Source: Candidatus Nomurabacteria bacterium (GTDB taxonomy: Bacteria > Patescibacteriota > Minisyncoccia > Phycocordibacterales > UBA9973). From it: a stretch of DNA of 64,000 nucleotides. The notes beneath the pieces were generated by a model. It was not told the origin of the DNA. It did no database searches and worked only from the letters and a program-made list of their open reading frames with translations. The position numbers were made by a program, and so were the translations under genes. Every line of letters starts with the position of its first letter. Within the stretch, counting starts at the first letter, position 1. Location: assembly GCA_016699085.1 (NCBI GenBank), contig CP064958.1, forward strand, positions 604,619 through 668,618, written 5' to 3'. Below are positions 1-24,497 of the stretch, in pieces.

Positions 1-3000
1 GTGTATACCATGACATTAACAGCACAAACATTAAGTGGCACCAAAACAGTTAGTGATTCATTTGAGACGAAGTCATCTCCTTTGTTTGATGTGGTGCGGA
101 CAGGACCAACAAGAATAAATCCAACCGCAGGGTATCCAGTAACGATTGATATTATTCCTAAAAAAAATTGGGAAGGGGTGATCACTGAAAGAGTGCCTTC
201 TGATTTTACTATTTCACCACCAATAAGAAGTATTTCATACGATACTGTTGAAACTCTAAATAATGAAAAGATACTTACGTGGAATGTATCACTTGTTAAA
301 GGCAAGAAAACAACTATTGGCTATTACTTTGATGCTCCAGACGAAAGTCCGCAATTTTATCTCCTTGGACCACTTACATTTGAGCTTGCTTCAACAGAAG
401 ACACAAAAGCGACAACAGTATTTAAGGAGGCACGACAATGGCAAATTGCAAGTGACGTTGCGACTGTCGTACTTTTAACGACTGGTACGAGCTGGAGTGT
501 GCCTGTAGACTTTGATCCAGCAAATAATACTATTGAAGGCATTGGTGGCGGTGGCGGCGGTGGTGGCGGAACAAATGGGACAGGAGCACAGGGTCGTGGA
601 GGTGGAGGAGCTGGTGGAGGAGGTGAATATAGAAAAATTTCGAATTTCAATCCAGGCGGTGCTGGATCAATATCATATGTAATTGGTCAAGGTGGTAGTT
701 TTGGTGCAGCAAATGCAAGTGGTAGTAGTGGTACTGATACGACATGGAATAGTACATCACTCGTAGCTAAGGCGGGTCTTTTAGGTGCAAATACAGGAGC
801 AGGTACAGGAGGTACTGGGGGCGCAGGGGGCACTGGTGGCACAGGAGCTGCAGGGAATAATGATGGTGGTAAGGGTGGCAAAGGTGGGAATCGAAGTGTT
901 ACATTAGGTGGAGGTGGAGGTGGAGGTGGAGGAGCTGGCGGAACAAGTGCTGTCGGAGCTGGAGGAACAAACGGTACTGCTGGTAGTACTGGGGGCGCAG
1001 GAGGTGCTGGGGGTAATGCTTCTGGTGGAACAGCAGGAACGAGTAATGGAGGAGCTGGAGGAGCTGGTACTGTTTGGACCGATAACTCAGGTGGTGCTAA
1101 TAATGGCGTACAAGGTGGAGCTGGTGGTGGCGGTGGAGGAGGACTTGCCGGTGCTGGTGCCGGTGGCGCATCAGGTACGGCTGGTAATTATGGAGCTGGC
1201 GGTGGCGGTGGAGCCGGTGGAGGTTCAGGTTCTTCAGCTGGAAGTGCTGGTACTACAGGAGCAAACGGTATTATTGCTGTTACCTATACTCCGTTTACTA
1301 TTTCGGGTACTGCAAACGGTAATGATACTGCCACTGTAAGAGTTGCTATTAATGGAACTTTACAAGCTCAAACAGGAACTATTTCTGCTAGTGCCTGGTC
1401 TATTAGTGGAGTTACTTTACCAACGTCTGGAGATATTATTACTGTTTGGGTAGATAACGTAACTGATGCAAATGAATCAACTGCTGTAACCATATGGAGC
1501 TCGGGTAGTGTTTCTAGTATGTTGCTAAACACAAATTTTTTAACAATTGGAAGTAATCAAAATACAAGTTTGACGGTCACTAATCTTGGTCAATATGATT
1601 CTGATAATGACGAAGATATTATGCACACCGCAAATAGTGGCGCTTTCTTAGTGCAAGCAGCTGGCAATACGTATACAGGGGAAACTGTTACAATCGCTTC
1701 AAGTAATACACTAACAGTTAGTACGAGTGAATCACTTACAACAGAAAAAATGATTATAAGTGGGACAGTCACTTCATCTGGTACTGCTACGTATACATTT
1801 ACAGGGACAACAGGGACACTCCTTACTAGAACTGGAACATTCACTCAAAGTAATTCAACGGTTAATATTACATCAGCATCTGGAACACCAACATTGCTGT
1901 CTGCTGCGGTCACGTTTCATATTCTTACTATTAATGCAGCTGCAACAGTCATAAATGCAGGTGCCGTCATAACTATCGAAGACACAAGTGGATCTTTGCT
2001 CTATATCCAAACTGGAGTACTCAATGATGATGGTTTAGGAATATCAACTTCGGCTTCTACCACCAATACATTGCAAATTGATTCTGGAGGTACGCTGTGT
2101 TTAGGTGGATCAAGCTCAAATACATCTGCAACTTGCAACACTGGTACTGTATCAACAACGACAAGGTCTATGCCAGCATTTAGTACGTATACATTAAATG
2201 CTTCTTCGACTGTTATTTATTTATCAGATGCGGACACAACTATTTCATCTACACCAACATATGGTAATTTGAAATTACAGCCAAAATTCGTAACTACTGC
2301 ACGTACATATACCTTAAATGGCGCTATGACCGTTAATGGTAATTTTGATATAAATCCCGAAGAATCGGGTGCGGGCACACCTGCACTTACAGTTAATGCC
2401 GGAGGTACCATTACAGTAGCGACAACAAAAACAATAACTCTAACAAGATCAAATAGTTCAAGTAGTTCTCTTGATCTAAGACCTTCATCAACTGATTACG
2501 ATCTTTCGGCTGGGTTCTTGGTGGTAGCCACTAGTGGTACTCTAGATGCAGGAAGTGCTTCATCTGCTATTACACTTACTGGTACTTCTGGAACGCTATT
2601 TACAAAAGCGGGTACCTTCACGCAAGGTACTTCTGAGGTAATTATAACGAGTGCGTCAGGTACGCCGACCTTGCTCTCGGCTGCAACAACATTCCATAAG
2701 TTGACTATTAATAGTACGGCAACCGTGATCAACGCTGGTGCTGTAATAACACTATCGAGTGCAGATGCTGCTAATAAACTTTATATTCAACAAGGTGTAT
2801 TAAATGATGGAGGTAATCAAATCGTTGGCACAGCAAATGGAACTATGCAAATAGATGCTAGTGCAATGCTTTGCATAAATGGCACTGCTGCAGGAACAAA
2901 TGCAACTTGTAATAGTGGTGCAACTATAGGTGGTGGATCAGGCGGATTCCCAACTAACTATACGAATGGCAATATTACCCTTGCAGTTACGTCTACTGTT

Positions 3001-5301
3001 TCATATTTGGGAAATGGTGGTCTGTCTATTTCATCTACACCGACGTATGGGAATCTTAAATTTAATCCAGTAATGGCTGGATCAAATAAAAGTTATACAT
3101 TTTCTGGCGCAACAACTATAAATGGGGATTTTACGATCCTACCTTCAGGTGCTGCATTAGAATTAAAAGTAAAATTAGGGGGCGATCTGACTGTGGCTGC
3201 AACTAAAACAACGACAATTTCAAATAGCGGGGTTCCAACATCTTTATTGCAGCTACGTCCCGTGAGTACAGATTATAATTTGACCACTGGTTTTTTGAAT
3301 GTCAGTAGTGGTTCCGAACTTGATGCAACTATCAGCTCATCGACTATTACTATTACGGGAACATCAGGTACGCTGTATACCAATGCTGGGACATTTGTTA
3401 ATGGAAGTACAGAAGTAAACTTTTCCGGTAATGGTAGTGCGACGATCAATTCTGGCAGTATTACCTTTAATAATTTTAGAAGTTCTGGTACTGGTACAAA
3501 AAGCCTTGGTGTTTCAGGAATTTCTGTTGCGAATAATATATTTATTACTGCAGGAACCTTTAATCCAAACGGAGTAGCCATATCAGGTTCAGGAATTAGT
3601 AATGTACTAACAGCGACAAATAGTACTCTATTGGTAGATCAAAATACAACGACTGCTTTTTCTGATAATTATTCAAGTATGGAAACAGTAACACTTGGTA
3701 CTGGTTCGACAGTTGACTACACGGGAAGTGGTTCGCAGACGATTAGTAGTTCATTCGGTTATGAAAATATAAAAACCTCAACAGGAGGCACCAAGACTTT
3801 AAATGGCACAACGGTGGCTAATGGATCAATTACCATTACTACATCAACACTTACGACAGCAGGTAATACACTGACCGCTCTGAGCATTTCGGTTGATGGG
3901 ACAAGTACATTTACTGCTAGTTCGACATCTACTGTCACGATTAACGGCACCACCGGACCAGTTTTTACGCTTACCTCGGGGGGTGCATTCAATGCAAATT
4001 CATCATCGTTTATCTTTGACGGCAATGCGAGTATGACGCTTCTTTCTGGTGCATTCACCGGTAGTAATGCATTTAATAATGTCACCTTCTCTCCGACAGT
4101 GTCGATTGGCGGTAATAAAACCTATACTCCAAGCTCTACAGCAGTAGAGATAAATGGTAATTTTATTATTAATCCTTCAGCATTGGCTGTCTCGACAACT
4201 TTGATAGTAAATTTAGCAGCAAATCTTACTGTCGCAACAAATAAAACGGTAACAATCCAAGGAACTGGCACTGGGTTAGGCAGGATTGATATACAATCAT
4301 TTGCTCTGAGTGCAGGTTCGATATCAATTGCATCAACTGGGACTATACTCGGTAATAGTGGGAATATTACCTTAGCTGAAAGCTGGACAAATAATGGAAC
4401 ATTTACTGCTGGAACATCAACAGTAACATTAAATAGTGGGACAACTGCAGTCGTAACCGGAACAACGACATTTTACAATCTCACTATTACCCATACGGCA
4501 GCCAAAGAGGTTGATTTTGCAACATCGGGCACCCCAATTTTTCACGTAACGAATGCATTTGTTGTTACGGGTAGTTCAGGTAATTTAATCAAACTGTACT
4601 CAGACTCTGCTGGTACTCAGTGGGAATTTCATCCTACAGGAACTGCTTCAGTTGATTATGCTGATGTCAAAGACGGCGGGTGTCAGTCGGGCGCTATAAC
4701 TATTTCACCGACAAACTCAACGAATAGTGGCAATAATGATCCTTGTTGGTTTTTTGGTACTGCAATATCATTTGATATTGATACAGCGCTCACCGATAGT
4801 GACTCAAATGCCCCATATAGTGTGGCACTGGGCGCTATTACAACATCTGATACGAGAGTATCAGGAAGTACTGATTCTATAAATTATATTTGGTTTGATG
4901 TATCTAGTTCTGCATCTGGTGGTGTAGTTATAACAGTTGTTAATACAAATGGCTCCAATGGTTTAGTTTCTACTTCAGTACCAGCAGATAACATAAATAG
5001 TGCTGACGGTTCTGTCGCAGATGGTACCGAAAATTACGGATTGTGTATTGTTGCGGTTTCAGCAGTGTCAGGCACACTGGATGATGAAGGAGGGTATGAT
5101 GGAGATACGTGTGCAGGTGACAGCGAAACCAATAATGTGCAACAGTTAACATCCACCGGTGAAATTTTATTTGATACAAATGGAGCCCCTATTACTACAG
5201 GTAGGGCACAAATCTCAGTTAATGCTTCAATAAGTGCCACAACTCCGGCACATGATAATTACACGGATACCTTGACCTTTATTGCAACTGGAACATTTTA
5301 A
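1..5301 (+). CDS. Giant secreted/surface protein, 5'-truncated at window edge. It has a Gly-rich low-complexity segment, three tandem ~270-aa Thr/Ser-rich β-helix-like modules, and a ~170-aa C-terminal domain shared with the downstream 379-aa protein.
   Basis: One continuous 1766-aa ORF from base 1; GGxGG-type low complexity at roughly aa 180-420; three internally repeated modules (...TGTSGTL(F/Y)T.AGTF..S.V.I.SASGTPTLLSAA.TFH.LTIN..ATVINAGAVIT...); C-terminal 170 aa about 55% identical to the C-terminus of ORF 5438..6577. Confidence 0.8.
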   Translation: MYTMTLTAQTLSGTKTVSDSFETKSSPLFDVVRTGPTRINPTAGYPVTIDIIPKKNWEGVITERVPSDFTISPPIRSISYDTVETLNNEKILTWNVSLVKGKKTTIGYYFDAPDESPQFYLLGPLTFELASTEDTKATTVFKEARQWQIASDVATVVLLTTGTSWSVPVDFDPANNTIEGIGGGGGGGGGTNGTGAQGRGGGGAGGGGEYRKISNFNPGGAGSISYVIGQGGSFGAANASGSSGTDTTWNSTSLVAKAGLLGANTGAGTGGTGGAGGTGGTGAAGNNDGGKGGKGGNRSVTLGGGGGGGGGAGGTSAVGAGGTNGTAGSTGGAGGAGGNASGGTAGTSNGGAGGAGTVWTDNSGGANNGVQGGAGGGGGGGLAGAGAGGASGTAGNYGAGGGGGAGGGSGSSAGSAGTTGANGIIAVTYTPFTISGTANGNDTATVRVAINGTLQAQTGTISASAWSISGVTLPTSGDIITVWVDNVTDANESTAVTIWSSGSVSSMLLNTNFLTIGSNQNTSLTVTNLGQYDSDNDEDIMHTANSGAFLVQAAGNTYTGETVTIASSNTLTVSTSESLTTEKMIISGTVTSSGTATYTFTGTTGTLLTRTGTFTQSNSTVNITSASGTPTLLSAAVTFHILTINAAATVINAGAVITIEDTSGSLLYIQTGVLNDDGLGISTSASTTNTLQIDSGGTLCLGGSSSNTSATCNTGTVSTTTRSMPAFSTYTLNASSTVIYLSDADTTISSTPTYGNLKLQPKFVTTARTYTLNGAMTVNGNFDINPEESGAGTPALTVNAGGTITVATTKTITLTRSNSSSSSLDLRPSSTDYDLSAGFLVVATSGTLDAGSASSAITLTGTSGTLFTKAGTFTQGTSEVIITSASGTPTLLSAATTFHKLTINSTATVINAGAVITLSSADAANKLYIQQGVLNDGGNQIVGTANGTMQIDASAMLCINGTAAGTNATCNSGATIGGGSGGFPTNYTNGNITLAVTSTVSYLGNGGLSISSTPTYGNLKFNPVMAGSNKSYTFSGATTINGDFTILPSGAALELKVKLGGDLTVAATKTTTISNSGVPTSLLQLRPVSTDYNLTTGFLNVSSGSELDATISSSTITITGTSGTLYTNAGTFVNGSTEVNFSGNGSATINSGSITFNNFRSSGTGTKSLGVSGISVANNIFITAGTFNPNGVAISGSGISNVLTATNSTLLVDQNTTTAFSDNYSSMETVTLGTGSTVDYTGSGSQTISSSFGYENIKTSTGGTKTLNGTTVANGSITITTSTLTTAGNTLTALSISVDGTSTFTASSTSTVTINGTTGPVFTLTSGGAFNANSSSFIFDGNASMTLLSGAFTGSNAFNNVTFSPTVSIGGNKTYTPSSTAVEINGNFIINPSALAVSTTLIVNLAANLTVATNKTVTIQGTGTGLGRIDIQSFALSAGSISIASTGTILGNSGNITLAESWTNNGTFTAGTSTVTLNSGTTAVVTGTTTFYNLTITHTAAKEVDFATSGTPIFHVTNAFVVTGSSGNLIKLYSDSAGTQWEFHPTGTASVDYADVKDGGCQSGAITISPTNSTNSGNNDPCWFFGTAISFDIDTALTDSDSNAPYSVALGAITTSDTRVSGSTDSINYIWFDVSSSASGGVVITVVNTNGSNGLVSTSVPADNINSADGSVADGTENYGLCIVAVSAVSGTLDDEGGYDGDTCAGDSETNNVQQLTSTGEILFDTNGAPITTGRAQISVNASISATTPAHDNYTDTLTFIATGTF

Positions 5302-17893: not shown

Positions 17894-18231
17894 CCTTACA
17901 CCAAGTACACACCAATACACATGCATTAGCAAAAGCCAGAGGCAAGCAGCTTTTTTATATACTCATTTCGGTTATTGTCCTGGCTTTCTGTGTCTATGTG
18001 TATTTTCTCGGCAGAACAGTGTTTGCTGTCGTCGTAAGGAAAAATATTGAGAATAATATCCGCACAAAAGTTACTGCTATTAGTGAGTTAGAACTTGCTT
18101 ATTTGTCAAAGAATAATACGATTGATCCAAATTTGCTGCAGAAAGAAGGATATGTTGCGCCAGAAAAAATGTATTTCATTTCAAGAGAAAATACCGTTGG
18201 ACTAGCATCAGTCAAGGGCTATGACCTCTAA
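17890..18231 (+). CDS. ftsL: FtsL-like cell-division protein (single TM helix).
   Basis: 113-aa bitopic protein between rsmH and ftsI, the canonical ftsL position; sequence itself is uninformative. Confidence 0.5.
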   Translation: MTLHQVHTNTHALAKARGKQLFYILISVIVLAFCVYVYFLGRTVFAVVVRKNIENNIRTKVTAISELELAYLSKNNTIDPNLLQKEGYVAPEKMYFISRENTVGLASVKGYDL

Positions 18232-19942
18232 TTTTTTATTGCGCCTGAGAATACTTGCTGGTTTTTTTATTGTCCTCATTATGCTTATTGCACTGAGGCT
18301 TTTTAGTGTTCAGATTGTGCATAGTGAGGATTATAAAGATCGAGCTGATCGTCAATACGCTGCACCTGCCAGCTCTCTTTTCGAGCGAGGTAGTATATTT
18401 TTTACTGAGAAAGATGGATCGAACGTAAGTGCAGCAACATTGAAGACATTATATAAGGTAGCAATTAAGCCTAAAGAAATCAGTGATAGTGATGCGACGT
18501 ATGCATTTCTCGAACCGTATGTATCACTAACACGTGAAGAATTTCAAAAGAAAGCAAAAGCGATTGATGATCCATACGAACAAGTTGCCAGTCGATTGCC
18601 TAAAAGTGTCGCTGATGCTATTGAAGCTAAACATTTGCCAGGTGTCTATGTATATAAAGAAAAAATTAGATTTTATCCAGGTGAAAGCCTGGCGGCGCAG
18701 GCTTTGGGATTTGTAGCTTATAAAGGTGATGAACTCTCTGGTCGTTACGGTATTGAGCGAATGTATAATGCGATCTTATCCCGTGACAGTAGTACAACTC
18801 AGGTGAATTTTTTCGCAGAAGTATTTTCAAATATTACAAAAACCATTTTTAAAAATCCTGAGGCAGAGGGTGATATTGTACTGACACTTGACCCCGCAAT
18901 ACAAGCAACGTTTGAGAAAACCTTACTCGAAACTAAGACCAAATGGAATGCGGACGCTATTGGTGGCATCGTTATTAATCCGATCGATGGTGCAATTTAT
19001 GCCATGGCATATGCGCCAACCTTTGACCTAAATGCATTTCAGAGTGTCGAAGATCCACTCTTGTATGCAAATCCAAATGTTGAGAACGTCTACGAATTTG
19101 GTTCTGTGATTAAGCCTCTAACGCTTTCTGGTGGTCTCGATACTGGTGTGATCAAGCCTACAACAACCTACGATGACAAGGGTTTTGTGATACTAAGCGG
19201 CAAACAAATAAATAACTTTGATAAAAAAGCTCGTGGACCAGGAACCAGCATGCAAGATGTGCTCAATGAATCATTAAATACTGGCTCTGTCTTTGTTATG
19301 CAAAAAATGGGTCGTGAAAGTTTTAAGAAATATATGCTCTCGTTTGGTATAGGAGACAAGACTGGCATTGACCTGCCAAACGAAACCAGCGGCCTCATAT
19401 CGAATCTAAAGACCAATCGTGATCTCGAGTATGCCAATGCTGCCTTTGGTCAGGGAATCGCTATTACACCGATCGAGGCTGTACGTTCATTTTCAGCTAT
19501 TGCAAATGGTGGACTGATGATTACACCTCACTTGGTGAGCCAAATCAACTACACCAATGGCACGCATACAGAAATTGAACCAAAGGCAGGTACACGTATC
19601 TTGAAGCCTGAAACTTCTCTCGCGATGACAGAAATGTTAACCATTGTGGCTGATACAATGATGAAAACATATAACGAATCACTGCCACATTATAGTATTG
19701 CGGTTAAGACTGGGACGGCTCAAATTGCCAAAGCTGATGGTACTGGCTATATCGAAGGCCAGAATCTGCACTCTATATTCGGCTACTTTCCTGCGTATGA
19801 TCCGAAATTCCTAACTTTTGTCTATATGAAAAACCCAAAAGGTGCGAAATTCTCAGCGCAAACCTTATCTGGGCCGCTTCTGAGTACAGCGTCGTTCCTA
19901 CTTAATTACTACGACGTAACACCGGATATTACTTCCGAGTAA
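18221..19942 (+). CDS. ftsI: Peptidoglycan D,D-transpeptidase FtsI (PBP3-type).
   Basis: SVIKP (SxxK), SLN (SxN), KTGTAQ (KTG) motifs; N-terminal TM; dcw-cluster position. Confidence 0.9.
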   Translation: MTSNFLLRLRILAGFFIVLIMLIALRLFSVQIVHSEDYKDRADRQYAAPASSLFERGSIFFTEKDGSNVSAATLKTLYKVAIKPKEISDSDATYAFLEPYVSLTREEFQKKAKAIDDPYEQVASRLPKSVADAIEAKHLPGVYVYKEKIRFYPGESLAAQALGFVAYKGDELSGRYGIERMYNAILSRDSSTTQVNFFAEVFSNITKTIFKNPEAEGDIVLTLDPAIQATFEKTLLETKTKWNADAIGGIVINPIDGAIYAMAYAPTFDLNAFQSVEDPLLYANPNVENVYEFGSVIKPLTLSGGLDTGVIKPTTTYDDKGFVILSGKQINNFDKKARGPGTSMQDVLNESLNTGSVFVMQKMGRESFKKYMLSFGIGDKTGIDLPNETSGLISNLKTNRDLEYANAAFGQGIAITPIEAVRSFSAIANGGLMITPHLVSQINYTNGTHTEIEPKAGTRILKPETSLAMTEMLTIVADTMMKTYNESLPHYSIAVKTGTAQIAKADGTGYIEGQNLHSIFGYFPAYDPKFLTFVYMKNPKGAKFSAQTLSGPLLSTASFLLNYYDVTPDITSE

Positions 19943-20058
19943 TTACAAATTTCAAAAAAAATGTTATAGTGTTTTCGCAATTTGGCCCTATCGCCCCCGC
20001 CTGCCCTCATGAGTACACGAGGGAGCGGGCAGGTAACGGCTAACGCATTAAAATCGTT

Positions 20059-20295
20059 ATGTACTTTGTCTATGTACTTAAAAGCAAAAAGGATGAGAAA
20101 CTTTATTATGGGTTTACAGAAAATATAGAAAAAAGGTTACATCAACACAATAATGGTGAAGTTCGATCTACGAAATATAGAATTCCACTTCAGTTGCTTT
20201 ATTATGAGAAAGTGGATAATCTTACAGAAGCACGAAAACGCGAAAAGTATTTTAAATCTGGATTTGGTCGAAAATATATAAAAAGTAAACTTTAG
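20059..20295 (+). CDS. GIY-YIG nuclease family protein (UPF0213/YhbQ-like small GIY-YIG).
   Basis: MYFVYVLKSKKDEKLYYGFTENIEKRLHQHNNG...; GIY-YIG motif spacing and conserved R and E positions. Confidence 0.85.
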   Translation: MYFVYVLKSKKDEKLYYGFTENIEKRLHQHNNGEVRSTKYRIPLQLLYYEKVDNLTEARKREKYFKSGFGRKYIKSKL

Positions 20296-20300
20296 CATTT

Positions 20301-20375
20301 GGCCCTATCGTCTAACGGCTAGGACAGATCCTTCTCAAGGATTAAATCAGAGTTCGATTCTCTGTAGGGTCACCA
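20301..20375 (+). tRNA. tRNA-Glu (anticodon CUC), CCA encoded.
   Basis: Hand-folded cloverleaf: acceptor GGCCCUA/UAGGGUC, D arm GUCU-AACGGCUA-GGAC, anticodon arm GAUCC-UUCUCAA-GGAUU (U33, anticodon CUC, A37), 4-nt variable loop, T arm CAGAG-UUCGAUU-CUCUG, discriminator A, CCA. Confidence 0.8.
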
Positions 20376-20428
20376 GTTGCCAGATCTAGCAATTTTTCCC
20401 CCTTGATTAATATTTAAATTGAACTTTA

Positions 20429-21541
20429 ATGATAGCGAGATTTAAATGTCAGATAATACCAAGTTTTTCAATTCCAGTACCGGTATATTCGGTACTAGAA
20501 CCCATTAAGACTCACTTGGGTATAATGGAGGTTGTAATTCATTCACCGCTACAGGCAGAGGCTGAGCTCCCTGATCTAAGTCTGCCGCGACAGGTATTAC
20601 CAGGAAAAACACCACCTTATTTTTCACCAAAAACTCATCCTGTTGTCTCAAATACGAAGATTAATGACGAGGAAACCATAAAAGCTAATTTGATTTTTAT
20701 CGATTTTAAGAAGGAGAGCTTTAGGCGATTTCGTAAAGAACCAAACCCAACTGACCCTTCGAAAGAACAAGTTGAAGAAATTTTATTGCTTTATATTTCT
20801 TCGATTAGAACGATCCTTCAAGGTGGTCAGATAAAGTTTAAACCCATAGACTCAATTCCTTGGATGATTGAATATCTGAATGATGACTACTCCGAACTAC
20901 CCATAGATGAGGCATTGATTAGGGGCGCATTCAATTTTAAATCTGAATTTAATATTTCCCCAATAGATGGGCCTTTATGGGAGCAAATTAAATTGCTCGT
21001 TATGACCAAAGAAAAACCACACATTTGGGAGACTTTATATTTAAATGCGTTATCAGTTTTACCAGATAGCGGAGCAGCCATAACCCTTACGTTTGCATCA
21101 TTAGAAAATCTTATTAACCACGCTTTAGAGTCTCTTGTAGTAAAAAGTAGTATAACCCCTGAGGTTTGGGATTGGATTAAAATTCCGTCAAATGAAAAAC
21201 GTAATTGGTTCAAGGAACCATCCGTGATTGAGCAATACACAAGTATTTTACACATGGTTAGTGGGAAAAATATACAAGAAGATAAGGAATTGTCTGAGCT
21301 ACTTTTAGAGATCAAGAATGTAAGAAATAATTTTATTCATGAAGGTTTACTTTTAAATTCTAAGAAGAAGGAGTTATCTGATACTGAAGTTGAAAATCTT
21401 GTAAGAAGTGCCTCAAAAATTATTGAATGGGTTGAAAGTTATTTACCTGAAGAAAAGCGCCGCAGGAAAAACACGACAAAAATAAATTTTGAGGACTCAA
21501 TAATTTATGACACAACACAGCTTAATGATCGCTCTAATTAA
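20429..21541 (+). CDS. Hypothetical protein with a C-terminal HEPN-like motif (R-x4-H: VRNNFIHEG at about nt 21320-21346); candidate RNase/abortive-infection-type effector. The true start is likely downstream of 20429.
   Basis: Rx4H motif in an all-helical C-terminal segment; no other recognisable domain; located next to a tRNA and an XRE regulator. Confidence 0.5.
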   Translation: MIARFKCQIIPSFSIPVPVYSVLEPIKTHLGIMEVVIHSPLQAEAELPDLSLPRQVLPGKTPPYFSPKTHPVVSNTKINDEETIKANLIFIDFKKESFRRFRKEPNPTDPSKEQVEEILLLYISSIRTILQGGQIKFKPIDSIPWMIEYLNDDYSELPIDEALIRGAFNFKSEFNISPIDGPLWEQIKLLVMTKEKPHIWETLYLNALSVLPDSGAAITLTFASLENLINHALESLVVKSSITPEVWDWIKIPSNEKRNWFKEPSVIEQYTSILHMVSGKNIQEDKELSELLLEIKNVRNNFIHEGLLLNSKKKELSDTEVENLVRSASKIIEWVESYLPEEKRRRKNTTKINFEDSIIYDTTQLNDRSN

Positions 21542-21774
21542 TTTTTGTATCTGTTTCTTTTTCTCATTTCTCTTAACGCCTCCCCATACAACTGATGTGG
21601 ATACACCCCATAGAGCACACAGAGCCTAAACAAGTACTCTGTTCCTGGATAGTAATGTCCTTGCTCCCATTTAGAAACTTGGCCTTCATCTGTAAATCCT
21701 AGGTACGTTGCCACGTCTTTCTGTGTAAGGCCATTGAGCTTCCTAGCTTCTCGTAGTTTGTTTGGTATAGGCAT
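21538..21774 (-). CDS. XRE-family helix-turn-helix transcriptional regulator (78 aa).
   Basis: LREARKLNGLTQKDVATYLGFTDEGQVSKWEQG is a typical Cro/C1-type HTH. Confidence 0.8.
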   Translation of the reverse strand: MPIPNKLREARKLNGLTQKDVATYLGFTDEGQVSKWEQGHYYPGTEYLFRLCVLYGVYPHQLYGEALREMRKRNRYKN

Positions 21775-21777
21775 AGG

Positions 21778-22110
21778 TTATAGCGAAGGGAACCTACCTA
21801 AGAATGGTAAGTCATTATCAAGGTTCTCCAGCTTCTCCTTGGTCTCTTTTTCCTTCTGCTCCCGCTCCCAAGCATCTACTTTCTCCTGAGCCTTCTCAGC
21901 AACACCAGGGAGTGACAAAGCTTTTAAATCCGCTATACTGCTTTGTACTGGTCTCTTATTTTCTAGCAATTCGGAAATCCAGACATTTGGATCACAAACG
22001 GCGCAAAGCCAAATAAACTGCTTTATTTGCGAGCCGTTCGTGAAGCCGCAGTCATGTCGCTTTGCGACAGACGAGGCGGGGTCGCAAGTACTTACGTAGA
22101 ATTTGAGCAT
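21778..22110 (-). CDS. Hypothetical protein (110 aa), co-oriented with and immediately upstream of the XRE gene (3-nt gap).
   Basis: ORF only; acidic/Lys-rich C-terminus; no recognisable motif. Confidence 0.4.
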   Translation of the reverse strand: MLKFYVSTCDPASSVAKRHDCGFTNGSQIKQFIWLCAVCDPNVWISELLENKRPVQSSIADLKALSLPGVAEKAQEKVDAWEREQKEKETKEKLENLDNDLPFLGRFPSL

Positions 22111-22199
22111 AGCGAAAAATTATACTTAGTAACTTGTGACCACATAAACAAAGTACGCGCAGCGTACAAAATAATGGCACCTAAACCCATAATCAAAAC

Positions 22200-23432
22200 A
22201 TGGAAAATCAAAACTTTAGCAACGGATCAGCCAAAAAGAATGAAAAAGAAACTCAAAACAATGAGGTGTCTTTGGGTGCAGATAGTGTTTCAAAGAAAGA
22301 ATTAGGTAAAAAGGAAAAAATAACCCTGGAAATTAATGGGCAAACAATTGAAGCAGTAAAGTATTATTTTGAATACCCTGAAAAGATTCAAAAAGAATCA
22401 GGGATTTTGGGGTATGAGAGAACAAAGATTTCAATAGATGAAAAGTTGATAAGTGACGAGATGGAGCATTATGAGCAATCTAAAATAATTACAGATTTAC
22501 TTGTTACTTTATCAGATGGAGAATATCCTGAGACATGTGTTACGCATAAATTCGGAGCTTATGGTTCTCATGAAGGATTCAAAAAAGGGTTTGCTGAGGA
22601 TAAATTTTTTGTTCAAAAAATATATGATTTAGATCGGATAGAAAAACTAAAAGATGAAATGGATCCAAATTACATATTTAATAACAATGGTGCAAAATTA
22701 GACATTTTTAATAAAAAAGACAACAGCCCCTATTCTGAAAATACCTATGGAAAAATTCCTGAACACCAAGTCTATCATGAAGGAGTACTCTTTTATGAGA
22801 CTACCCCAATTGCAAAAATTCCAAAAAAAATCTTAAGCAATGAGAGTGAATTTTACATTAAAAAAGATTTTTACCTAGAACCAGGGAATTTTTGGCATGG
22901 TGTAGGAATAAAAGATATTGGATTTGGTTTTTCAGTTCTCAATGATCCTTTTTTCTTAAAATATATTGAAGAATCCATTTTACTTGATCCTGAACCTTTA
23001 TTTAAATCTGAGGACTCTACCACAAAGGATATATTTTGTATTTATCTTATAAATGAGTACCATCGACTTGGTTACTCTTTTATTAGTAACTCATCTGATG
23101 ATAAAACTATCGATGAAATAAAAAGAAAATTTATTTTAAAAATAGATGAAATTGCAAAAGAATTTTTAAAAAACAAGATATTATCCAATGGTGATTTATA
23201 TAATTCTGAAATTAGTATGGGTAAGTATGCCACAGAAAAATTTTTAGGGCGTTCGGGTGCTTTTAAAGGAAATTATTTTGTAGGTAATGAAATAAAAATT
23301 CCAATTTTTATGAATCATGACAATATTCCCCAGCTTTCGTGGGGTCACGCAAAATATGCTCATTATTTCAATGATAAAGGTTTAAATTTTTTCAAGTTCA
23401 AACACGCAGACTATTTACCAAAGAAAGAGTAA
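22200..23432 (+). CDS. Hypothetical Lys/Asn-rich protein (410 aa) in a markedly AT-rich segment.
   Basis: Long ORF, composition distinctly more AT-rich than flanking housekeeping genes; no confident domain assignment. Confidence 0.55.
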   Translation: MENQNFSNGSAKKNEKETQNNEVSLGADSVSKKELGKKEKITLEINGQTIEAVKYYFEYPEKIQKESGILGYERTKISIDEKLISDEMEHYEQSKIITDLLVTLSDGEYPETCVTHKFGAYGSHEGFKKGFAEDKFFVQKIYDLDRIEKLKDEMDPNYIFNNNGAKLDIFNKKDNSPYSENTYGKIPEHQVYHEGVLFYETTPIAKIPKKILSNESEFYIKKDFYLEPGNFWHGVGIKDIGFGFSVLNDPFFLKYIEESILLDPEPLFKSEDSTTKDIFCIYLINEYHRLGYSFISNSSDDKTIDEIKRKFILKIDEIAKEFLKNKILSNGDLYNSEISMGKYATEKFLGRSGAFKGNYFVGNEIKIPIFMNHDNIPQLSWGHAKYAHYFNDKGLNFFKFKHADYLPKKE

Positions 23433-23696
23433 ATAAATTCTTCAAATCTATAATGCTACGGTTCATTTTTCATATTTACAAACATATTTTCTCAAGATGA
23501 CACAATGAAGGACTTGAACTTTTTTAATTCTTTGTTGCATTTTGGATTATCTTTTATCTGAACCTTCATTAGTACAAGCAGCTGCAATGACTACTTTTTA
23601 CATTGTGGTACTAAAATCTCTAATACTGCTTTTTTTCCTTAAGTTCACCATGATATAAAAATGTCCATTATAAAATGGTTATCCACAGCTAAATTC

Positions 23697-23725
23697 TTGC
23701 AAGAGAACGAATGTTCTCCTATACT
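23697..23725 (+). promoter_or_regulatory. lexA promoter with embedded SOS (Cheo-type) box: -35 TTGCAA (23697-702), 17-nt spacer containing AGAACGAATGTTCT (23704-23717), -10 TATACT (23720-25).
   Basis: GAAC-N4-GTTC inverted repeat read directly; it sits exactly in the spacer between plausible -35/-10 hexamers, about 205 nt upstream of lexA. Confidence 0.6.
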
Positions 23726-23731
23726 ATATTC

Positions 23732-23920
23732 ATGAGCAAGCATGAATATTTTAAATCAATACATAAGGAACTTAAAAAGATCAATAAAGTTATTGATGAG
23801 AAAATTATTCTTGGCAAGAGCTACAAAGAAGAATCTATGCGTCATAAATTTCTCCTTACACAAATCCGCAAATTGCAAAATAGTCAGATGATGTATAAAT
23901 TCATGACTTTTCTATTCTAA
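23732..23920 (+). CDS. Possible small protein (62 aa from ATG 23732) co-transcribed with lexA. The ORF-track start at 23711 lies upstream of the predicted transcription start.
   Basis: ORF ends 1 nt before the lexA ATG; Lys-rich; no homology recognisable. Confidence 0.3.
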   Translation: MSKHEYFKSIHKELKKINKVIDEKIILGKSYKEESMRHKFLLTQIRKLQNSQMMYKFMTFLF

Positions 23921-23921
23921 T

Positions 23922-24497
23922 ATGTTTGAAACATACAAAAACAAAATAGTAGCGTTCTACAAATCCAACAAGCGTATGCCAAGTTATTCAGAAATTATGA
24001 AAATTACCGGACTCAAATCAAAGAGTCCGGTATTTAAGCTCGTCGGCAAGCTCGTCGAGCAAGGATTCATTGGGAAAGACGCAAACGGTAAACTTATCCC
24101 CAAGCAATCATTTAACAGCATTACACGACTTTCTCAGACAGTATCTGCCGGATACGGTGCAGCTGTGGAAGATGAGGTGGGGGAAAAGGTTGACCTTGAT
24201 GATTGGCTTGTCAGAGATAGTAGCAAGACGTTTGTACTTGAAGTAAATGGAGATTCGATGAAGGATGCCAGCATTCTCGATGGTGACAGTGTCCTTGTTG
24301 AACGGACGACTAACTTCAAAGATGGTCAAATCGTTGTCGCGCTTTTAAACGATGGCTATACAGTCAAATATCTCCGGAAAACACAAAAGTCTATGTATCT
24401 TGAACCAGCAAACAAAAAGTATAAACCCATATATCCAACTGAAGATAATCAAATAGAGCTTGTCGCTGTGGTAAAGACAATCATACGAGAGTTATAA
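23922..24497 (+). CDS. lexA: LexA repressor (winged-HTH plus S24 peptidase domain).
   Basis: C-terminal S24 catalytic Ser in GDSM and Lys in TVKYL; N-terminal wHTH; SOS box upstream. Confidence 0.85.
   Translation: MFETYKNKIVAFYKSNKRMPSYSEIMKITGLKSKSPVFKLVGKLVEQGFIGKDANGKLIPKQSFNSITRLSQTVSAGYGAAVEDEVGEKVDLDDWLVRDSSKTFVLEVNGDSMKDASILDGDSVLVERTTNFKDGQIVVALLNDGYTVKYLRKTQKSMYLEPANKKYKPIYPTEDNQIELVAVVKTIIREL

Follow-up and report, generated by a model that had tools for sequence, protein, structure and literature searches.

A probable minimal nuclease/hairpin cassette in the D arm of a tRNA-Glu gene from a Candidatus Nomurabacteria genome

A 64,000-nucleotide stretch of the genome of a Candidatus Nomurabacteria bacterium (GenBank assembly GCA_016699085.1, contig CP064958.1, positions 604,619 to 668,618; the window, numbered here from its first letter) carries a gene for a small GIY-YIG nuclease directly 5' of tRNA-Glu(CTC), between the intact tRNA gene and a second, split copy of its 5' end. 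Region 19996-20312 is, we think, probably a minimal selfish cassette, made of a nuclease gene and a hairpin, that has been inserted in the D arm of the tRNA gene and belongs to a kind that invades conserved genes while regenerating them. This reading starts from an insertion with defined borders, a presence/absence polymorphism between close relatives, an architecture that recurs across a family, purifying selection on the open reading frame (ORF), a hairpin that moves on its own, and one sign of lateral exchange. From sequence we infer the activity of the nuclease, its substrate, the repair pathway, co-transcription with the tRNA, and the origin of the duplication at a new target.

Results

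An empty allele of the tRNA-Glu locus

The gene immediately upstream of the locus, at 18221-19942, encodes a penicillin-binding protein (PBP; Pfam Transpeptidase), and is followed by a promoter-like site and the tRNA-Glu locus. Relatives were found through homologs of this PBP, and their contigs were compared with the window. In one of them (L081, from Logan accession SRR17549186), with a PBP 97% identical to that of the window, the same PBP 3' end, intergenic sequence, promoter, and leader are followed without interruption by an intact tRNA-Glu, with the same sequence as that of the window. Since the flanks of this empty allele are identical, the window holds an insertion of 317 bp, 19996-20312 in one register. 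The extra bases comprise a hairpin, tRNA positions 13-21, a spacer, the ORF, a second leader, and tRNA positions 1-12 (Table 1); the second leader reads TTTaGCA-TTT, against TTTcGCAaTTT in the native one. Three more distant relatives (L082-L084, PBP 59-60% identical) also have an unoccupied tRNA-Glu(CTC), each behind its own promoter. A scan of metagenomes with the leader and tRNA start (TCGCAATTTGGCCCTATCG) for more alleles of the species returned a single unrelated match in a coding region (L086).

A first-pass annotation of this DNA, made from the sequence alone, had proposed a minimal GIY-YIG mobile cassette, or the remnant of a homing event, that regenerated or displaced the 5' region of the tRNA, and had suggested a comparison with empty sites in relatives. 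The four unoccupied alleles support that proposal. The alternative it had raised, that the repeat might belong to a leader common to many tRNA loci, does not describe what was found: the repeat is the tRNA's own 5' end, and such duplications accompany GIY-YIG homologs at 14 tRNA isotypes.

The duplication itself consists of two colinear blocks. A 14-nt direct repeat, ATTTGGCCCTATCG, is exact at 19980-19993 and 20297-20310, so the repeat claimed earlier is real, with coordinates that were one base off. It occurs in only two copies in the 64 kb, even when two mismatches are permitted. With one indel the repeat lengthens (TTTcGCAaTTTGGCCCTATCG against TTTaGCA-TTTGGCCCTATCG), and TAACGGCTA, at 20034-20042 and 20313-20321, forms the second block. 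Combined, the blocks correspond to the leader plus tRNA-Glu positions 1-10 and 13-21. The duplicated part is therefore the 5' end of the tRNA and not the 3' end, as had been noticed, but it extends over about 33 nt (leader position -12 to tRNA position 21) rather than 14. The 14-mer alone is statistically weak, since 5 of 100 shuffled versions of the window also yield at least two matches with no more than two mismatches. What rules out chance is the second, colinear block, the empty-site allele, and the recurrence of the arrangement in dozens of unrelated loci.

The GC-rich insert that splits the upstream copy had been described as a 40-nt hairpin-forming interruption of a decayed partial copy. 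The insert is present and folds, but it is 38 nt long, and rather than a product of decay it is a conserved part that defines the family. Its fold is modestly better than that of shuffled sequences (RNA, -29.9 kcal/mol in context, z -2.2; DNA, z -1.8). The region 19700-20700 has no Rfam match besides tRNA (E up to 10), and the downstream tRNA is uninterrupted, so a group I intron in the window tRNA was rejected. The hairpin was also rejected as an intrinsic terminator: there is no terminator-like site, and no T-run follows it.

Table 1. Features of the tRNA-Glu locus in the window and the evidence for each
Feature	Position	Strand	Evidence
Promoter-like site, native to tRNA-Glu	19942-19970	+	ATTACA, 17-nt spacer, TGtTATAGT; consensus scan; same sequence directly 5' of the intact tRNA in empty allele L081
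Displaced native leader and tRNA-Glu positions 1-12	leader 19973-19983, tRNA part 19984-19995	+	Matches leader and tRNA start of L081 except position 11 (T>C); direct repeat with 20290-20312
GC-rich family-specific hairpin	19996-20033	+	CCCGCCTG CCCTC atgagtacac GAGGG a GCGGGCAGG; splits the displaced tRNA copy exactly at the 12/13 junction
Displaced tRNA copy, positions 13-21 (TAACGGCTA)	20034-20042	+	Exact match to 20313-20321; two-block analysis
AT-rich 16-nt spacer ahead of the start codon	20043-20058	+	Sequence; spacers of 4-30 nt in homologous loci
Gene for 78-residue single-domain GIY-YIG nuclease (UPF0213/Slx1-like)	20059-20295	+	Pfam match, conserved residues, structure model, dN/dS
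Second leader copy (CTTTAGCATTT)	20290-20300	+	Overlaps the ORF stop codon TAG (20293-20295); alignment of left junction, right junction, and empty allele
Intact tRNA-Glu(CTC)	20301-20375	+	ARAGORN; Rfam 57.9 bits; identical to the empty-allele tRNA; its initial 12 nt are counted with the insertion in this register
The 317-bp insertion as a whole	19996-20312	+	Comparison of window and L081; register ambiguous within the repeats

The GIY-YIG protein

The nuclease gene is the only gene in the 317-bp insert, and the tRNA begins six bases past its stop codon. Its assignment to the UPF0213 type of GIY-YIG proteins, made at first sight, agrees with Pfam, structure-database, and Foldseek matches. The translated product of ORF 20059-20295 matches Pfam model PF01541 (GIY-YIG) over residues 1-72 with E = 3e-14 and 53.4 bits (cut-off 22.6). 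Among 34 homologs, Y16, G18, R26, H30, and E62 are invariant and Y5 is nearly so; the catalytic set is thus complete, with the Tyr pair of the GIY and YIG motifs, the Gly, the Arg, the His, and the metal-binding Glu. A profile search against Protein Data Bank (PDB) sequences finds the UPF0213 proteins BH0048 and EF2693 (1zg2, 1ywl) at 1e-9 and SLX1 at 4e-4. The AlphaFold2 model (pLDDT 95.8) has strands at 2-9, 15-20, and 44-52 and three helices, the alpha/beta fold of GIY-YIG domains. In Foldseek comparisons UPF0213 and Slx1 structures are the best matches (TM-score 0.59-0.74, Slx1 0.64-0.74), ahead of UvrC (0.54) and I-TevI (0.52). The 78 residues make up one catalytic domain, with no recognition module and no C-terminal zinc-finger domain of the Slx1 type. 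An identical protein is on record (P0001, from the homology search). NCBIfam, PHROGs, and PADLOC give no meaningful family match, and membership in a known defense or phage family was rejected on that basis.

The ratio of nonsynonymous to synonymous substitution rates (dN/dS) of the ORF is 0.05-0.22, which indicates strong purifying selection. With its conserved catalytic residues and its UPF0213/Slx1-like fold, the product is likely an active nuclease.

Many homologs are annotated with the C-terminal sequence ALSSNG, which is the translation of the tRNA-Glu 5' end (G/GCC CTA TCG TCT AAC GGC TAG); these ORFs run into the tRNA gene. In P0022, P0054, P0120, and many more, gene callers have added N-terminal extensions of 20-50 residues that translate the hairpin and tRNA fragment (for example, ...PPASPPAGREQAG...). 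Both the extensions and tails such as ALSSNG are annotation artifacts.

A recurrent architecture at tRNA genes

Far from being an isolated case, the locus is one member of a very large family, with 5,984 clusters at 50% identity (E <= 1e-10). We took 80 homolog loci from a species-level genome collection, in which there are at least 515 confirmed loci. In 56 of the 80, the ORF is followed at a distance of 0-120 nt by a tRNA gene on the same strand, and 14 isotypes are represented. The tRNA-adjacent loci come from Patescibacteria, Bacteroidota, Desulfobacterota, Margulisiibacteriota, Ignavibacteriota, and Fidelibacterota.

Duplication of the tRNA 5' part is a property of the family. An exact match of at least 11 nt to it lies no more than 150 nt upstream of the ATG in 26 of 55 loci, compared with none of 1100 control windows; the 3' part is repeated upstream of the ATG in two of the 55. 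Two exact blocks, parted by an insert of 20-74 nt and without loss of a tRNA base, were found in 26 of 57 loci, the window included. When mismatches are allowed, the 12 and 8 nt that border the insert directly adjoin each other in the downstream gene at 25 of 44 loci, against 3 of 220 mismatched-locus controls. In this form, the one seen in the window, the hairpin stands at tRNA positions 5-33 and the tRNA piece past it is always 6-16 nt long.

Other arrangements of the same parts occur. The ORF may lie within the apical loop of the hairpin (L044, L049, L052, L055), as it does also in a class at the 3' end of tRNA-Gly (L015, L036, L059, L063), where the tRNA 3' end is at once the 5' arm of the hairpin, CCCGCTCCA. 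The hairpin may instead stand between ORF and tRNA, its terminal GGG serving as tRNA positions 1-3 (L028, L030, L031, L032, L041, L043, L013). Locus L080 is a mirror image, with an intact tRNA-Ser, the ORF, and then a partial 3' copy that has the hairpin in its T loop. In some loci the ORF is missing: a fragment and hairpin stand next to an intact tRNA, and remnants of the end of the ORF are left (L021, L010, L026, L058). The CCTGCCTGCCGGCAGGCAGG class is found at tRNA-Arg in Bacteroidota.

Targets are not restricted to uninterrupted tRNA genes. In L073 the target, tRNA-Asn at 4264-4504, itself has a group I intron (Rfam 78.7 bits), and ARAGORN therefore missed the tRNA; by eye, the downstream tRNA of L017 and L013 also has one. 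Two cassettes from one metagenome-assembled genome (L012, 3908-4290; L020, 2700-3096) are in protein-coding genes, where they duplicate the 5' ends of NAD-dependent epimerase genes. There the hairpin splits the GxGxxG-coding region, and the replacement gene start follows the ORF.

Two further loci are more elaborate. L010 (3770-4500) has a full-length copy of tRNA-Arg(CCT) with a hairpin in its D loop, beside an intact copy, and L057 (230-900) repeats in tandem about 100 nt of upstream sequence together with a hairpin-split 5' part of tRNA-Lys. These arrangements suggest repeated rounds of duplication.

The hairpin as a second component

The ends of the insert are conserved (CCYGCCNG ... CNGGCRGG). 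The interiors vary by lineage yet are always self-complementary, which therefore indicates selection for a stem-loop. The hairpin keeps company with the nuclease gene: in a scan of 538 kb, 52 of 59 occurrences of its motif lie within 200 nt of a GIY-YIG ORF, and in the 64-kb window the single match to the terminal motif is 19996-20033. Homologous hairpins occupy the same tRNA position as that of the window in L001, L002, L006, L007, and L087.

Several loci show hairpins in other settings. In L005 a 27-nt hairpin sits precisely inside the loop of a hairpin that is intact in L006, with no target duplication. L009 has two hairpins in tandem, and L087, a Nomurabacteria tRNA-Glu locus, has two in the displaced fragment, at positions 12/13 and 22/23. 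From these sequence comparisons, the hairpins are mobile independently of the ORF. There is no short target-site duplication around them; they are inserted with no base gained or lost.

The two arms of the hairpin form inverted repeats, but the order of the outer tetramers is not palindromic. Where these tetramers differ from each other, they are ordered t1 t2 ... rc(t1) rc(t2) in 15 cases (rc denoting the reverse complement) and in palindromic order in none. The loci with this order include the window (CCCG CCTG ... CGGG CAGG), L001-L007, L017, L021, L035, L043, and L075. Such an order therefore provides two mutually exclusive pairing registers, shifted by 4 nt.

Transfer and persistence

The syntenic pair L039 and L058 dates the ORF differently from its surroundings. 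Synonymous divergence (dS) is 0.12 in the ORF and 0.29-1.34 in five flanking genes, and the element block shows 96.8% identity where the flanks show 85-87%. This suggests recent lateral exchange between lineages at the same tRNA, on the evidence of one pair; in the other syntenic pairs the dS of the ORF is saturated. Nearest-neighbor ORFs share a tRNA isotype more often than expected by chance, in 22 of 57 cases, compared with a permutation mean of 6.0 and maximum of 16.

Surroundings of the locus

On the 3' side of the tRNA, the stretch 20376-24497 may be a strain-variable island. Its first 3 kb hold ORFs of 370 and 410 residues without a Pfam match and a minus-strand gene for an XRE-type helix-turn-helix protein (21538-21774), followed by a gene for an S24 LexA-like peptidase (23922-24497); neither an integrase nor a repeat of the tRNA 3' end was found there. 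Different genes follow tRNA-Glu in L082-L084, and the contig of L081 ends exactly at the tRNA-Glu 3' end. At the far end of the window, a very long ORF (more than 1,766 codons) enters from the left edge and occupies 1-5301.

Discussion

A proposed selfish cassette that rebuilds its target

The cassette we propose would consist of a GC-rich hairpin with family-specific ends and a gene for a one-domain GIY-YIG nuclease of about 80 residues, of the structure-specific UPF0213/Slx1 type. It would end in a replacement leader and tRNA positions 1-12, which make the downstream tRNA gene complete again. On the upstream side, the native promoter and leader would stay in place together with tRNA positions 1-21, the tRNA piece as a dead fragment split by the hairpin. 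The promoter-like site now 5' of that fragment presumably drives the nuclease ORF and then the tRNA; fragment, hairpin, ORF, and tRNA would probably be transcribed as one RNA, from which RNase P would free the tRNA.

The nuclease has no DNA-binding domain and therefore most likely recognizes DNA structure rather than a sequence specific to tRNA. This view draws on its reduction to a catalytic core, its affinity to Slx1 and UPF0213, the frequent switching of targets, and the conserved hairpin ends. Candidate structures are the extruded hairpin, the hairpin junctions, and the folded strand of a tRNA gene. A break or nick in an unoccupied target could be repaired by copying the occupied allele, with tRNA sequence on both sides as homology, in the manner of homing or gene conversion, and recombination between the direct repeats would regenerate empty sites. 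The cassettes in protein-coding genes follow the same logic of duplication and speak for this scheme, as an instance of generic targeting.

A number of points weigh against it. The rebuilt tRNA is equivalent to an empty target, and a nuclease specific for tRNA sequence would cut its own locus; classical homing does not explain how this is avoided. The duplication usually comes with 9-13 nt of genome-specific leader and seems to arise in situ whenever a new target is entered, an outcome that simple homing does not give. The displaced copy always ends 6-16 nt past the hairpin (9 in the window), and classical homing does not explain this coupling. Recombination between the repeats would restore the exact empty allele, and gain in the lineage of the window is therefore indistinguishable from precise loss in L081; the loci of the closest ORF homologs (L001-L007, L087, L089) have neighbors that differ from those of the window, and synteny does not settle the matter. 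The syntenic sets L014/L023/L079 and L071/L073 have intact ORFs at saturated dS, a long vertical persistence that is unusual for a purely selfish homing gene. In 35 of 57 cases the nearest-neighbor ORF, at 59-78% identity, sits at a different isotype, often even at 70-78% identity, and targets therefore change often. Phage and plasmid collections gave no match to the family, and so no vector; a scan of IMG/VR gave a single relative (L085). Self-cutting, in-situ duplication, and the coupling of hairpin to copy end, which classical homing leaves unexplained, therefore leave room for a mechanism like that of a transposon, operating on folded single strands, and, with greater speculation, for a guide role of the module made of fragment, hairpin, and fragment.

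Other explanations

The strongest competitor, to which we allow an appreciable though clearly minor chance, is that the cassette is a new kind of true transposon. The hairpin arms would be the ends of the element, the basic form would have the ORF in the loop, and solo hairpins would be non-autonomous. The small nuclease would mobilize folded single-stranded DNA and insert it at or next to the loops of stem-loops such as the cloverleaves of tRNA genes, and the partial target duplication would not come from homologous repair but would be a programmed result of insertion, through cuts staggered by about 9 nt or nick-primed re-synthesis. The forms with the ORF in the apex, those of the tRNA-Gly 3' class among them, speak for this account. 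So does the precise entry of hairpins into the loops of other hairpins (L005 against L006), sometimes more than one to a fragment (L087). By inspection, insertion points seem to cluster at loops: they lie within the D loop, the anticodon loop, the T loop, or the 8-9 linker, or at their margins. The frequent change of isotype, the duplication in situ of a genome-specific leader, and the constant 6-16 nt from hairpin to copy end also fit this account. Against this, GIY-YIG enzymes hydrolyze DNA, so that host ligation or repair would still be required, and we know of no strand transfer by such enzymes. Moreover, the ORF in the window-type form is not flanked by hairpin arms, and no excised intermediate or circle junction was seen.

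Two further accounts are improbable. According to one, which we would hold to be a long shot, the upstream module (tRNA 1-12, hairpin, tRNA 13-21) functions as a guide, either as RNA from the tRNA promoter or as single-stranded DNA; the hairpin would be a protein-binding scaffold whose flanks pair with unoccupied tRNA genes and place the nuclease at the 12/13 junction. Target-identical flanks around a conserved hairpin do adjoin the nuclease gene downstream of a promoter, the flanks of old syntenic elements continue to agree with the resident tRNA at positions specific to a lineage (L014, L023, L079), and a 78-residue nuclease cannot itself encode specificity for 14 isotypes. However, the intact downstream tRNA would be a target too, the hairpin may precede, follow, or enclose the ORF, decay is seen in many of the upstream copies (L003, L004, L016, L025), the protein has no RNA-binding domain, and no Rfam family besides tRNA matches the region; to our knowledge there is also no precedent for a guided GIY-YIG enzyme.

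The other account, to which we give equally little credence, makes the nuclease a domesticated host factor that is co-transcribed with tRNAs, for example for repair or processing at heavily transcribed tRNA genes, with fragment and hairpin as inert scars. Strong purifying selection, retention of the ORF at syntenic sites over saturated dS, its constant placement on the same strand directly 5' of the tRNA, and the absence of matches in phage and plasmid collections would all suit a host gene. They are outweighed by the strain pair with 97% identical PBPs of which one has the cassette and the other does not, by the relatives L082-L084 that do without it, by the same cassette in protein-coding genes, by a hairpin that is conserved and mobile rather than inert, and by the ORF of L039/L058, which is much younger than its flanks.

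A remnant of attL and attR sites left by an integrase-mediated element is scarcely credible, as is a chance repeat: integration commonly takes place in tRNA genes and leaves partial copies of them (PMC9897764), but the 317-bp insert has a GIY-YIG ORF and no integrase, none is found among the neighbors, the 5' end of the tRNA rather than the 3' end is duplicated, the 3' end occurs once in the window, and the arrangement recurs at dozens of loci with the GIY-YIG gene alone. An IS200/IS605 or REP/RAYT element was rejected because the sole protein is the GIY-YIG nuclease, with no HUH protein (TnpA/RAYT) and no TnpB. Campbell-type integration of a circle, an H-type pseudoknot at the hairpin ends, and an RNA-mediated duplication bounded by the start of transcription were considered as well, and none fits all forms.

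Novelty and implications

A full-text literature search, of incomplete coverage and so compatible with a prior description elsewhere, found no account of small GIY-YIG genes with a cognate hairpin that invade tRNA genes. We tentatively raise the possibility, which we do not yet regard as the expected outcome, that the cassettes form a previously unrecognized class of prokaryotic mobile DNA. Its members would have a GIY-YIG nuclease of about 80 residues as their only protein and a hairpin in cis with conserved, non-nested ends, would exist in autonomous (ORF in the loop) and solo-hairpin forms, and would target folded single-stranded regions of tRNA genes, which they would rebuild by duplicating part of the target in a programmed way; with target sequence on both sides, the hairpin might also guide the nuclease as a nucleic acid.

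If the reading as a selfish cassette is correct, such cassettes, at about 320 bp, would be among the smallest self-contained mobile elements known. They would also represent a new way to exploit tRNA genes that are essential and present once per tiny genome, one that the host survives, by rebuilding the 5' end of the gene and borrowing its strong promoter. Members of the family are at present annotated merely as "GIY-YIG nuclease family protein". The arrangement explains small nuclease ORFs that apparently read into tRNA genes, spurious N-terminal extensions translated from the hairpin, and tRNA fragments and assembly breaks beside tRNAs. It would further offer a testable system in which to ask how a GIY-YIG nuclease reduced to its catalytic core locates its substrate; structure-specific or nucleic-acid-assisted recognition is possible and would be of interest for enzyme engineering.

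Comparison with known systems

Like the cassette, integrase-borne islands and prophages use a conserved tRNA target, regenerate the tRNA from a carried copy, and leave a partial copy behind (PMC9897764). Unlike the cassette, they extend over kilobases, carry a gene for a tyrosine or serine integrase, and have the 3' part of the tRNA in duplicate.

Short GC-rich hairpin units that multiply within a genome include REP and BIME elements with their RAYT proteins, MITEs, IS200/IS605 elements, and the GC clusters of yeast mitochondria. Their protein-less copies rely on an enzyme made elsewhere and may enter other hairpins, in which they resemble the hairpins described here. The cassette differs in that its enzyme is a GIY-YIG hydrolase, not an HUH or DDE transposase, in that its hairpins are nearly confined to the vicinity of a nuclease gene and to tRNA-derived sequence, and in its non-nested ends.

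By sequence and structure, the closest matches of the nuclease itself are Slx1 and the YhbQ-like proteins of UPF0213. Slx1 is a structure-specific nuclease that acts on branched DNA and stem-loops, which fits an enzyme associated with a hairpin. It has an additional RING-type domain and needs Slx4, whereas the cassette nuclease is a single domain of 78 residues. We are aware of no assigned function for the UPF0213 proteins of solved structure, nor of any link between either group and tRNA genes or a cognate hairpin.

Phage T4 SegB is encoded by a GIY-YIG homing gene in a tRNA gene cluster (PMC2330249; reviewed in PMC2988022), and Seg genes spread by cutting genomes that lack the ORF, which are then repaired from a genome that contains it (PMC2330249; PMC2988022). 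The likeness lies in a GIY-YIG gene between or next to tRNA genes. Unlike the cassette nuclease, Seg proteins have about 200 residues or more, with DNA-binding domains and a cleavage that tolerates sequence variation but is site-specific; unlike the cassette, Seg genes are phage-borne and lack both target duplication and hairpin, and the cassette family has no match in phage collections. Of the features expected of a homing gene, an ORF-less allele in a close relative is present (L081), and a module that recognizes a long target is absent.

The closest documented analogs are the mobile ORFs (mORFs) of fungal mitochondria, found in atp6 of Allomyces macrogynus and in atp6, atp9, cox2, and nad3 of Glomus. 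They are free-standing endonuclease ORFs in essential conserved genes, of the GIY-YIG type in atp9 (PMC3630166). An mORF brings a replacement terminus, so that the gene stays functional and the native terminus is left beside it as a fragment; it may lack a stop codon of its own and read into host sequence, and its alleles are polymorphic between close relatives (PMC3630166). The cassette differs in targeting bacterial tRNA genes, and rarely protein genes, and in usually replacing the 5' end. Its nuclease is a catalytic core of about 80 residues without a recognition domain, it has an obligatory, conserved GC-rich hairpin that moves on its own, and its duplicated piece is 20-45 nt long and usually identical to the resident gene, not visibly foreign. 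What the two have in common is a replacement terminus with the native fragment beside it, an ORF that runs into the host gene, and polymorphic alleles.

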